The position numbers and the translations under genes are program-made. From Parachlamydiales bacterium (GTDB lineage: Bacteria > Chlamydiota > Chlamydiia > Chlamydiales > SM23-39), in contig JBNLAH010000001.1 in NCBI GenBank assembly GCA_050302075.1, positions 292,157 to 356,156 of the forward strand: 64,000 bases of DNA, read 5' to 3'. Under the pieces are notes generated by a model, which saw nothing but the letters and a program-made list of their open reading frames with translations, ran no database searches and was not told the DNA's origin. Positions 5,215 through 7,943 of the stretch are shown here, piece by piece. Each line of letters begins with the position of its first letter. Position 1 is the first letter of the stretch.

Positions 5215-6564
5215 TTAAATTGCAAACATGTCGAGCCATAGAGGTTTTTTACTTGAGCTGAAAAATAGCAAACTTGACACTATCCCTACCACTCCATCTA
5301 AACAACCTGGATTATCTATCCACTTTTCTGGCTCATTCTTTTGAGATGCAAGTGTTTTGTAGCCAAAAGGATGCTCATCGCTATAAAGATTAACAATTAG
5401 TTCAGCTATATTGTGGCTTATCTCTAAAAACTTCTCATCTTTAGTATCTAAGAACATGGTATAATAAATTGTAAGAGCTCCAGAAAACCCATGGCAAAAC
5501 GAGGGACATTCCAACCCTGACTTACTTGGAAATCTTTCTATAGAACTTTTTAATACATCTAAACTGAATTTTTTAAGTTCTTGGTTTTTTGTAGCCATTG
5601 ATGCCAAAAAAAGAGATCTTGCAGTGCCAGTTGCTCCATAACACCAACCATCTCTGTACAATTCATCGAAATAGTCAAATTTTTTTTCTTTCTTTGAGGA
5701 AAAAACAAATCTTGATGGCCATATATTTTTTTCACTAAAAGATAATATATTTTCCTTTAGCCAATTAGAAATTTGAACAATAGCATCATTGCAGTTATAT
5801 CTAGATTCACTAAAAAGTGACGCTTTGCTTAAAGTACTTAAAATTCCACTAATTCCATGAGCTACTCCCGTATCAATACAACCATTTTTATATTTCATTT
5901 GATTATCTTTTCTTGTCAAAAGTTCACCAGGAGTAAAGAATGATGGTACTAGGGTTTTTTCAAAGTACATAGTCGATGATCCTAAACTGCTTAATCTATC
6001 AACTATGCTCGAACATATGCTATCAACAGTTGGGTTATCTATGAAATGAACTAAATAGGGGAGAACTCCAGAAAGTCCTGTTATTAAGTCCCAAAGCAAT
6101 GGAGGAACGAATTTACCATCTTGTATACACTGATCCCAAGGGTTTAAATATTCTTTTCTTACCTTATCAATCAAAATATTATTTAAATCTTTAATAAGGG
6201 ACTTGTAGCGAGTTTTGTTTTTTGATGCGCAAAGTATTGAAAAATTGATTCCTGTCAATCCTGAAAAAAGAGAGGTGTTATAAATTCCTTTTTCTTCAAT
6301 TAAGTTTATAAGTTGCTGGATCACAACATGCGATGCTTGGTCCCATCCTTGATTTGGAAATGAATTATCTAGAGTCGAAAATAATAAAATAATAGCAGGG
6401 TATCCATGGGATGTACTTAATGAGTCCCATGGATGTGCATTAATATAGGGAATAAAATTTTTATCTGAAAAACAAACTTTTTGTATTTTTTCAATATCTA
6501 AAAACTTATTTCCAATTTTTAATGCAATTTCGTTTATTTCTGAGGTCAGTGTTTTGTATTTCAT
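5215..6564 (-). CDS. lanC: Lanthionine synthetase/cyclase LanC (canonical)
   Basis: GVAHG, WCYG and FCHG catalytic/Zn motifs all intact; LanC GxxG repeats. Confidence 0.92.
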   Translation of the reverse strand: MKYKTLTSEINEIALKIGNKFLDIEKIQKVCFSDKNFIPYINAHPWDSLSTSHGYPAIILLFSTLDNSFPNQGWDQASHVVIQQLINLIEEKGIYNTSLFSGLTGINFSILCASKNKTRYKSLIKDLNNILIDKVRKEYLNPWDQCIQDGKFVPPLLWDLITGLSGVLPYLVHFIDNPTVDSICSSIVDRLSSLGSSTMYFEKTLVPSFFTPGELLTRKDNQMKYKNGCIDTGVAHGISGILSTLSKASLFSESRYNCNDAIVQISNWLKENILSFSEKNIWPSRFVFSSKKEKKFDYFDELYRDGWCYGATGTARSLFLASMATKNQELKKFSLDVLKSSIERFPSKSGLECPSFCHGFSGALTIYYTMFLDTKDEKFLEISHNIAELIVNLYSDEHPFGYKTLASQKNEPEKWIDNPGCLDGVVGIVSSLLFFSSSKKPLWLDMFAI

Positions 6565-7943
6565 TTAACCTTTTCTCCAATTATCTGTAGCCTATCTTTT
6601 GATGATTCATAGATATTTAATTTACCTCTTTGTTCTTTGAAAAAAATCATTGAAGGTGATGAGTTATAAAGTTGTTTTGTAAAAAAATAACCACGATCTG
6701 AGGGGTATAAAATTGTTGGAGGTTCATTTTTACAATACATTCTAAGGTGGTTTTCAGTAGCTTGAACAAACATAATGGTATTTTCTTCACCAAATAGCCG
6801 GTATTTTCCTTCAAGTTTTTTTAGGTTTTTAATAGGAATCTTTATTTGCTTATGCAAACGGTCTTTGGGGATATTTGGGTTAAGCCAACGATGTGCAGTT
6901 AGACCAAATGTATCACTATCAGCTAATAAGATAACCAAATATGAGGATTTTTTATCCCAACCAACAAAGGAACTGAATCCAAGAGTTCTACCGGTTAATA
7001 TATTAATTTCTCCCTTATATCGTTTATCCATAGACCATCCCATTCCGGACCTTATTCTAAATTTTTCTAAGCTGAATGGAGTTTTTTCTAATTTCCTTGC
7101 AAATTCCGAGTTCCTAAAATCAGAGAATGCGATGTAATTAAAATAAATTGATAAGTCATGAATGCTTGAAATGATAGAAGCAAAAGCTTTTAGGTATTTG
7201 ATATTCCAATAGGGAACCGGAACGCCTTGACTATTCCCTGTTACTTTTCTATTTGGGCAATTTTTTGGCATTTCTATGAAAGTTTCTTTCATATTCAGTG
7301 GCCTTAAAATATATTCCTGCAGTAGTTTTCCATAACTTTTGCCAGATACTTTTTCAAGTATTAAACCAATAAGTCCGTATCCTAAATTTGAATAAATTGG
7401 TTTTTCTACGTTAGCTGGTAATTTTTGAGTAGATAAAAATCTATCAATGTCAGACATGTCATAGTCTACAATAGGGACTGTATTTCCGCTTAACTTATTA
7501 TAGTAACTGTTCAGCTCAGGGTCTTTTAATCCTGTCGTATGAGTTAACAATTGATATAGACTCTTACGCTTTAAAGATTCATGAGCATTTGGAAAAACTT
7601 CTGTTATAAAAGGTTCTATTGATTGGCTAAGATTAATTTTCCCTTCTTCCTCAAGAAGTAAAGCGAGGTGGGCTGTAAAAAATTTGGTTATAGAACCAAT
7701 TTCATAAAGATCGTGAATAGTAGACTGGTTATTAATTGTTATATATGAGGTGCCTTCAGAAGTTAATATTGACGCGATTGGGTTTGTATTGTACTTAAGG
7801 TTTACTCTTTCTTCTAAGTCTATAAAAATATTTTCTTCTAAATTTCCCATCATCTCATTAGAAAATCCAATTAGTTTTGTTGAAATAATAAAAATCGGAC
7901 AAATAATTTTGCGCCTAAAATAGGATAAATAGTTTTTTTTCAC
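6561..7943 (-). CDS. Serine hydrolase, beta-lactamase/AmpC/PBP fold, with C-terminal extension
   Basis: GSITK (SxxK), LLTHTTG and YSNLGY (YxN); overlaps both neighbours by 4 bp. Confidence 0.85.
   Translation of the reverse strand: MKKNYLSYFRRKIICPIFIISTKLIGFSNEMMGNLEENIFIDLEERVNLKYNTNPIASILTSEGTSYITINNQSTIHDLYEIGSITKFFTAHLALLLEEEGKINLSQSIEPFITEVFPNAHESLKRKSLYQLLTHTTGLKDPELNSYYNKLSGNTVPIVDYDMSDIDRFLSTQKLPANVEKPIYSNLGYGLIGLILEKVSGKSYGKLLQEYILRPLNMKETFIEMPKNCPNRKVTGNSQGVPVPYWNIKYLKAFASIISSIHDLSIYFNYIAFSDFRNSEFARKLEKTPFSLEKFRIRSGMGWSMDKRYKGEINILTGRTLGFSSFVGWDKKSSYLVILLADSDTFGLTAHRWLNPNIPKDRLHKQIKIPIKNLKKLEGKYRLFGEENTIMFVQATENHLRMYCKNEPPTILYPSDRGYFFTKQLYNSSPSMIFFKEQRGKLNIYESSKDRLQIIGEKVK

Follow-up and report, generated by a model that had tools for sequence, protein, structure and literature searches.

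A serine hydrolase gene inside a lanthipeptide operon

What does a serine hydrolase of the beta-lactamase fold do in the middle of a lanthipeptide operon? The question is raised by a 64,000-nt stretch of the Parachlamydiales bacterium contig JBNLAH010000001.1 (positions 292,157 to 356,156; here called the window), in which the gene for a 460-AA protein of the PF00144 family is placed between those of a LanB dehydratase and a LanC cyclase. An initial annotation of this DNA had proposed that the protein may be a non-canonical leader peptidase or maturation enzyme, in analogy to the colibactin prodrug-activating peptidase ClbP, or else a resistance peptidase. We found that the hydrolase represents a small clade tied to lan genes and present in a minority of chlamydial lan clusters. 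As to its role, we tentatively favour an exported, lan-dedicated S12-type hydrolase that could inactivate the mature lipid II-binding lanthipeptide in the periplasm as a form of self-protection. The cluster comprises the following genes:

12316..12522, minus strand: lanA, 68-AA precursor of the gallidermin/nisin family (PF02052, 32.2 bits; TIGR03731, 33.4 bits vs. a cut-off of 29.3)
10974..12281, minus strand: lanC-like paralogue, 435 AA (PF05147, 135 bits; motif reading)
7940..10954, minus strand: lanB dehydratase, 1004 AA (PF04738, 329 bits; PF14028, 151.6 bits)
6561..7943, minus strand: S12-type (PF00144) serine hydrolase, 460 AA, GTG start (PF00144, 121.7 bits vs. a cut-off of 27)
5215..6564, minus strand: lanC cyclase, 449 AA, with canonical His236, Cys308, Cys357 and His358 (PF05147, 192.9 bits; motifs)

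This is a compact class I lanthipeptide cluster with LanA, a two-domain LanB and a zinc-ligand-bearing LanC. The LanA leader contains an FDLKL box, and the core (residues 44-68) carries the ring A/B motif TSKSLCTPGC and ends in CCSCK; the leader/core cut, placed by analogy with nisin and epidermin, we take to be Leu43/Val44. The overlap of the hydrolase gene with both lanB and lanC, noted in the initial annotation, was borne out and amounts to 4 nt on each side: the GTG start shares GTGA with the lanB stop (7940-7943), and the stop shares ATGA with the lanC start codon ATG (6561-6564). The same annotation had described the operon as devoid of a subtilisin LanP or C39 peptidase, and this holds genome-wide: neither PF00082 (S8) nor PF03412 (C39) has a match in the source genome (1.84 Mb in 89 contigs, 96.2% complete). 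The gene at 6561-7943 is the only PF00144 gene of this genome. No domain of a non-ribosomal peptide synthetase (NRPS) or polyketide synthase (PKS) was detected with Pfam among 12 neighbouring proteins scanned.

Motifs, fold and predicted export of the hydrolase

The features of the protein, listed from its N-terminus, are placed on the DNA as follows:

7860..7943, minus strand: basic-then-hydrophobic N-terminus, residues 1-28, predicted Sec signal or membrane anchor (hydropathy; low predicted local distance difference test score, pLDDT)
7683..7694, minus strand: motif I SITK, with the nucleophile Ser84 and Lys87 (alignment)
7518..7550, minus strand: LLTHTTGLKDP, the HTSG loop with a two-residue clade-specific insert, x-Asp before Pro (alignment)
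7386..7394, minus strand: motif II YSN, residues 184-186, with Tyr184 and Asn186 (alignment)
6990..6998, minus strand: motif III LTG, residues 316-318, with Leu for the Lys/His of (K/H)(T/S)G (alignment)
6567..6809, minus strand: C-terminal beta-strand domain, residues ~379-459 (DSSP of the AlphaFold2 model; Foldseek)

By profile, motif I, motif II and three-dimensional fold, the hydrolase is a member of PF00144 / MEROPS S12, and it departs from the family at motif III. The motifs SxxK and YxN, which the initial annotation had read as intact, are indeed so, as SITK (residues 84-87) and YSN (184-186). In the alignment of the clade described below, Y184-S185-N186 is invariant and S84 and K87 are nearly so, owing to one N-terminally truncated row; across a 44-sequence alignment S84, K87 and Y184 are invariant. 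The Lys/His of motif III is absent in all 11 clade rows, with Thr and Gly kept in the window protein. The pattern across the clade, found likewise in 16 listed clade representatives, is Leu, Val, Ala, Ile or Phe, then a small residue and Gly. As counted from the alignment table, His or Lys occupies this position in 25 of the 26 other chlamydial rows and in 20 of 24 outgroup rows. The insert of two residues gives the clade the form HTSG-(L/I)-x-(D/E)-P.

The AlphaFold2 model of the hydrolase has a pLDDT of 91.6. Residues 28-357 superpose on class C beta-lactamases, DD-peptidases and Pab87 with Z ~33; for the class C enzymes and Pab87, Z is 32.6-33.1 at a root-mean-square deviation of ~3 Å over ~305-321 residues. 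Foldseek alignments of 466-487 columns were obtained with 2qmi, 7spn and 6ksu, with a C-terminal beta domain as in Pab87, IS11 and SurE, and the best Foldseek match is the DL-peptidase Lip3 (9sn1, E 8.9e-22). Among solved proteins, the top match by sequence is the alkaline D-peptidase 4y7p (4.1e-18), and lower matches are other S12 peptidases, including Pab87 (2qmi, 3.3e-16), the DD-peptidase R61, the D-stereospecific hydrolase 9s7k and ClbP (3o3v, 2.8e-9). The ESM Atlas returned only generic PF00144/DUF3471 clusters, with neighbours carrying PF11954, and NCBIfam has no equivalog for the hydrolase. Assignment as a class C beta-lactamase proper (AmpC-type) was rejected, with 67.5 bits vs. a cut-off of 415 for NF033085 and LTG in place of KTG. 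The gene is under purifying selection, with a ratio of nonsynonymous to synonymous substitution rates (dN/dS) of 0.20 relative to an 82%-identical metagenome copy, L081 (460 codons, ungapped, GTG start included).

From its signal-like N-terminus we predict export of the hydrolase to the periplasm. The maximum Kyte-Doolittle 12-residue mean of this region is 2.05 and its pLDDT is low; a basic-then-hydrophobic N-terminus is present in at least 8 of the 11 clade members and in most of the additional representatives. No N-terminus of this kind is seen in LanB or LanC, and textbook signal peptides are found in a chlamydial S12 clade that is not associated with lan genes.

A small clade linked to lan genes

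In our phylogenetic reconstruction the hydrolase belongs to a small monophyletic clade of ~17 clusters at 50% identity. A word-indexed search gave 114 relatives, 10 of them at E ≤ 2e-69, followed by a drop to 9.5e-24. An exhaustive profile search of 1.84 billion representatives gave 98,704 PF00144-type proteins at E ≤ 0.001, of which 17 score at least 291 bits. In a 61-row tree (quick search, LG+G4, no bootstrap) the 11 clade rows form one branch with a Shimodaira-Hasegawa-like approximate likelihood ratio (SH-aLRT) of 99, separate from other chlamydial S12 proteins, 23 rows of which make up a clade of their own. The clade rows were assigned by similarity, and gene context was read for six loci, namely the window, L001, L002, L003, L081 and L082, a set that leaves out P0004-P0009, P0011 and P0117-P0128.

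Co-occurrence with LanB/LanC, named beforehand as a check on the proposed role, was found at all six clade loci read and is lacking in distant PF00144 relatives. According to Pfam, the order of genes is LanC-LanD-LanB-LanC-S12 in L001 and LanC-LanD-LanB-S12 in L003, and in L002 the end of a LanC is followed by S12. Custom LanB and LanC profiles were built from the window, L001 and L003 proteins, so that matches at those loci arise by construction; with these, LanB and LanC were seen to flank the hydrolase gene in L081 and LanB to precede it in L082. No adjacent lan genes were detected with the custom profiles at 155 distant PF00144 loci, many of them short, where the sole lan-like signal was a weak LanC-like open reading frame (ORF) ~6 kb away in L014. 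Since the clade members read, unlike distant PF00144 relatives, adjoin lan genes, a role linked to the lanthipeptide is supported.

The clade-to-lan linkage is real and specific. Of 400 sampled and scored chlamydial genomes, 231 match the clade profile at E ≤ 1e-5, and more than 250 bits are reached in four only (G000, G175, G241 and G085), in each of which the gene adjoins lan genes; the top four scores are 688, 567, 434 and 291 bits, and the next match has 207. The three clade loci with a readable LanA (window, L001 = L225 and L003 = L223) all encode an epidermin-like peptide of the form TSKSLCTPGC...NSFCC. A 'beta-lactamase' adjoining lanB has been mentioned for Chitinophaga pinensis (PMC3091789). 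A survey of Chitinophagaceae covered 251 genomes, 27 of them with LanB, and 32 LanB stretches of up to ~20 kb each. None of the 32 had an adjacent hydrolase relative, and in two a PF00144-like ORF was present on the strand opposite to lanB, at a distance of 2.7 kb and ~6 kb, respectively. On the basis of these stretches, a general association of such hydrolases with Gram-negative class I clusters was rejected.

The second chlamydial S12 clade (L196-L221) has HxG motifs and clear signal peptides and is common in chlamydial genomes without LanB; its neighbours, judged by ORF size, include no obvious conserved partner. Relatives from Paenibacillus (L004-L010) share ~31% identity with the hydrolase, and the gene in L004 encodes a 351-AA single-domain protein with no large synthetase-size ORF nearby.

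The hydrolase as an accessory gene of chlamydial lan clusters

The genes lanABC have been reported in Parachlamydia acanthamoebae (PMC3091789), and a lanthionine synthetase in a dinoflagellate chlamydia (PMC11317633). LanB clusters are common and widespread in chlamydiae, with LanB in 41 of 401 sampled genomes. We fetched 40 stretches around full-length LanB matches, leaving out partial matches, and grouped 590 ORFs, including those of the window's first 22 kb. Most clusters amount to a bare LanA-LanC-LanB unit to which further LanC copies are added; LanD, a flavoprotein, is encoded at 8 loci, and 7 loci have members of an ABC exporter family (47 representative neighbours scanned against Pfam). 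In most chlamydial LanB clusters, neither a protease nor a transporter is encoded next to the lan genes. The chlamydial LanAs are highly diverse and have a YDLD-type leader box in common.

The hydrolase is an accessory and not a core part of these clusters, occurring in 3 of 41 chlamydial LanB loci. An epidermin-like LanA is encoded in seven loci, the three with the hydrolase and four without it (L224, L229, L249 and L258, the last with a broken LanB), and no hydrolase was found at the 34 other LanB loci. A loosely filtered search of L260, L261, L256, L240 and L250 yielded no additional epidermin-like LanA. In an alignment of the seven LanAs, the leader/core junction is alike with and without the hydrolase, consisting of Gln/Glu, Leu/Val/Ile and then Ile/Val/Met-Thr-Ser, and the L229 core is nearly identical to that of L225. 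Since hydrolase-free clusters make the same type of peptide with the same junction, the hydrolase is not needed for leader removal there. In the LanB tree (FastTree only) every hydrolase-bearing cluster pairs with a hydrolase-free one, a pattern that points to repeated gain or loss of the hydrolase.

LanP is missing from chlamydial lan clusters generally. A search of 37 further chlamydial genomes with lan genes (or with the S12 clade) gave no S8 match in 34, and in the other three the S8 peptidase lies on a contig different from that of LanB. Of the role proposed in the initial annotation, the link to the lanthipeptide stands by co-occurrence, whereas the argument from the missing LanP is weakened, this being general in chlamydiae and clusters with the same junction existing without the hydrolase.

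Proposed role in self-protection

The resistance peptidases TriF and BogQ, encoded within biosynthetic clusters, have SxxK and Tyr catalytic motifs and cleave after D-residues (PMC8127968), and they have been placed with the S12 D-peptidases Lip3/Lip7, which lose most of their activity without the motif III Lys/His (PMC12903863). With these D-stereospecific resistance peptidases as a model, self-protection would proceed as follows: the hydrolase would be exported to the periplasm and would there cleave the finished lanthipeptide, and not the leader junction, leaving the peptide inactive. We infer a finished-peptide substrate because the characterised bacterial S12 peptidases considered cut next to D-residues, D-centres are on offer in the core only, and sister clusters make the peptide without the enzyme. 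The D-centres available would be the Ser/Thr-derived halves of the core (methyl)lanthionines and no others. Family enzymology suggests the same role: D-residues are the sites of action both of the closest solved relatives and of those cluster-encoded S12 peptidases that have been characterised. The restriction of the hydrolase to peptides with a lipid II-binding ring A/B motif also suggests self-protection, and so does the hazard that such a peptide would present to a lipid II-using diderm once in its periplasm. A narrower version, in which a D-stereospecific hydrolase evolved in lipid II-dependent chlamydiae reads the D-half of the (methyl)lanthionine and opens those rings of the epidermin-like lantibiotic that bind lipid II, seems to us rather unlikely.

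Several points weigh against self-protection by cleavage. Motif III is without the Lys/His that Lip3/Lip7 require for full activity, and because of this loss the peptidase activity of the hydrolase may be weak or altered. The steric demands on a cut within a small thioether ring are high, and we know of no precedent for such cleavage. The D-configuration of the lanthionines of the window peptide is assumed from nisin and epidermin, and degrading its own product in the periplasm is wasteful for the producer. The likeness to TriF and BogQ is drawn from their descriptions, and ~11 clade representatives (P0117-P0128) lie outside the context set. A complex prediction of hydrolase residues 29-460 with LanA, run without controls, gave a score of 0.01 (mark 0.32) and weighs on neither side as regards binding.

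TriF and BogQ, from Paenibacillus and Brevibacillus, resemble the hydrolase as SxxK/Tyr serine peptidases encoded inside a peptide-antibiotic cluster (PMC8127968, PMC12903863). They are described there as acting outside the cytoplasm, presumably in defence of the producer; export of the hydrolase is predicted. They belong to non-ribosomal clusters, including that for tridecaptin, which binds lipid II, and their substrates contain free-standing D-amino acids. In contrast, the product here is ribosomal, its only D-centres would lie within thioether rings, and motif III has neither Lys nor His. Resistance peptidases are reportedly also the subject of a study by Li et al. (2018). Lip3/Lip7 (9sn1), the best Foldseek match, likewise combine an S12 domain with a beta-rich C-terminal domain and act on secreted peptide natural products, but they are not cluster-encoded immunity genes and modify the lipopeptides of another organism, and the hydrolase differs from them by its LTG. 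The nisin resistance protein NSR (S41) is an exported serine peptidase which inactivates a lipid II-binding lantibiotic. It has another fold, trims the linear C-terminal tail and not a ring, and is a resistance gene of non-producers. Pab87 (2qmi) and the alkaline D-peptidase 4y7p are the nearest solved relatives by sequence, and Pab87 is also two-domain (Z 33.1), yet identity is only ~20-23% and neither is linked to a lanthipeptide.

Alternative roles

An exported hydrolase could instead serve as a non-canonical leader peptidase, replacing LanP and cutting the modified precursor at Leu43/Val44 (Leu/Ile in relatives), a role that we regard as possible but doubtful and to which we narrowly prefer self-protection. 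Such a role would agree with the genome-wide lack of S8 and C39 matches, with the coupling of the gene to lanB and lanC, and with predicted export, NisP and EpiP being exported as well. The junction also lacks a LanP-type Pro-Arg/Pro-Gln site, so that a different protease would be required, and the loss of the motif III Lys/His would suit a substrate with no free carboxylate beside the scissile bond. Yet four epidermin-like clusters have the same junction and no hydrolase, and the 95% complete genome G156, with one such hydrolase-free cluster, has no clade-profile match at E ≤ 1e-5; the absence of LanP, general as it is in chlamydial lan clusters, is little informative here. At the predicted junction P1 would be L-Leu, while D-residues are the sites at which the characterised bacterial S12 peptidases considered act, and a lipid II binder freed in the producer's own periplasm would be a hazard. 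The missing motif III base calls for the same caution as with self-protection. LanP enzymes (NisP, EpiP; S8) resemble the hydrolase as products of a class I lan operon that act outside the cytoplasm, while their fold and catalytic mechanism are unrelated; the hydrolase carries only PF00144 and no S8 domain. ClbP, in which the same fold activates a pro-form in the periplasm, lends the leader peptidase some further support: it shares the S12 catalytic domain (3o3v, E 2.8e-9; 7mdf, Foldseek E 2.7e-18), is periplasmic and is encoded in a biosynthetic cluster. However, in ClbP three transmembrane helices are found at the C-terminus and the cut is made after an NRPS-made N-acyl-D-Asn, and the hydrolase has a C-terminal beta-barrel in the model, a cluster of LanA/LanB/LanC for a peptide that is ribosomally synthesized and then modified post-translationally (RiPP), and an L-residue at the predicted junction. 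The analogy drawn in the initial annotation is thus retained for the catalytic fold and lost for the C-terminal helices and the P1 residue, predicted to be L-Leu and not a D-residue. A ClbP-type prodrug peptidase was rejected as a candidate, there being no C-terminal three-helix membrane domain (residues 379-459 form beta strands in the model) and no NRPS/PKS neighbours.

Immunity without cleavage of the lanthipeptide, either by DD-peptidase-like remodelling of the stem peptides of peptidoglycan or lipid II or by LanI-like sequestration, we consider unlikely. The protein shares its fold with DD-peptidases and penicillin-binding proteins, the change in motif III may mean slow turnover or binding only, and the separate exported chlamydial S12 clade without lan genes is a possible source of a cell-wall role. 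On the other hand, rings A/B bind the pyrophosphate and do not read the stem peptide, the invariant Ser, Lys, Tyr and Asn argue for catalysis, and the motif III Lys/His used by DD-carboxypeptidases is absent. Less probable still is a cytoplasmic partner of LanB/LanC, be it a tailoring esterase for glutamylated Ser/Thr intermediates or a precursor-binding helper. The overlaps with lanB and lanC would fit it, as would the esterases of the same fold (IS11) among the best structural matches, some of which do without the motif III Lys/His. A parallel is offered by CorD, a PF00144 protein conserved in the corallotide (graspetide) RiPP cluster that binds the precursor in a role its description leaves unexplained (PMC13097080); it is likened to the hydrolase by description only, belongs to another RiPP class and phylum, and in that description no signal peptide is reported. 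Both the signal-like N-terminus of most clade members and the making of the same peptide by sister clusters without the hydrolase speak against a cytoplasmic partner. Finally, an ordinary beta-lactamase or housekeeping hydrolase placed in the cluster by chance is very improbable. PF00144 proteins are common in chlamydiae, as the 231 matched genomes show, but the clade is distinct, all six of its loci read are in lan clusters, and none of the 155 distant relatives has adjacent lan genes. In addition, all NCBIfam class C models score far under their cut-offs (e.g., 67.5 vs. 415 bits), and the catalytic Lys of KTG is absent.

Relation to described cluster-encoded hydrolases

Cluster-encoded S12 hydrolases are already known to activate (ClbP) or to destroy (TriF, BogQ) non-ribosomal peptides. 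In the literature searched, no PF00144 enzyme is assigned a function in a lanthipeptide cluster, and the only related mentions are the C. pinensis 'beta-lactamase' and CorD. As a term, 'beta-lactamase' has served as a keyword for lanthipeptide-cluster proteases, for which 120 Pfam families of putative proteases were compiled (PMC8960859), a list that may include PF00144. New here is a dedicated clade beside LanB/LanC that has lost the motif III His/Lys, gained a two-residue insert, and mostly combines a signal-like N-terminus with a C-terminal beta-barrel. With its rebuilt motif III, this clade is a defined candidate for either of two functions missing in Gram-negative class I lanthipeptide producers, leader removal or the survival of a lipid II-needing diderm against its own lipid II binder. 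If the enzyme does cut at lanthionine D-centres, it would provide a new tool for lanthipeptide analysis and a new kind of lantibiotic resistance; if it opens the rings, it would be the first enzyme to confer lantibiotic immunity in this way, and chlamydiae, which need lipid II for division, would have to shield their periplasm from their own peptide.

Other features of the chlamydial lan loci

The window cluster has two lanC genes, of which the upstream copy (10974-12281) reads AYG, WFCG and LFYG where the catalytic His and two of the three zinc ligands would be expected; its product is likely no working cyclase. Among 48 LanC-family ORFs of more than 380 AA in the 41 chlamydial loci, the His/Cys/Cys/His set is kept in 33 and not in 15, as judged from an alignment. 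ORFs without the catalytic His and at least two zinc ligands are the window copy (10974-12281, minus strand), L001:8682-9989 and 13 more in L228-L261. These ligand-poor paralogues, which may act as partners without catalysis, occur where a cluster has two or three lanC genes.

The C-terminal ends of the epidermin-like LanAs differ. The window LanA (12316-12522, minus strand) has a CCSCK tail and that of L249 (7098-7331) a CCTCK tail, both in clusters without LanD; the LanAs of L001 (L225:16384-16593) and L003 (520-723) end in CC, in clusters with LanD. A CCSCK/CCTCK-type tail and the LanD decarboxylase seem to be alternatives.

A ~650-950-AA protein with a Clp-like AAA domain is encoded at L225:13245-16121 (minus strand), with relatives near L224, L229, L249 and L258, and thus adjoins five of the seven epidermin-like clusters; the genome of the window has only ClpB-like matches. 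From its translation, which gave no profile match in this part, its C-terminus looks like an OTU-type (ovarian tumour) cysteine protease. In genome G086, an S41 peptidase gene (L250:12023-13045, plus strand) directly follows lanB, in a locus with a LanA of a different type, and thus gives a further case of an exported serine peptidase at this place in a cluster.

In the window, a scan of positions 2500-14200 for promoters and terminators gave no sites above shuffled controls. The genes of an AstE/AspA-type deacylase (4032-5045, minus strand) and a major facilitator superfamily (MFS) transporter (2735-4051, minus strand) overlap by 20 nt; this pair lies 170 nt downstream of lanC and was not seen near other lan clusters. 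The epidermin-like cluster of L258 has four LanA genes, and its LanB (G233:C1:449092-450975) contains in-frame stops, three TGA and one TAG, and has probably decayed.

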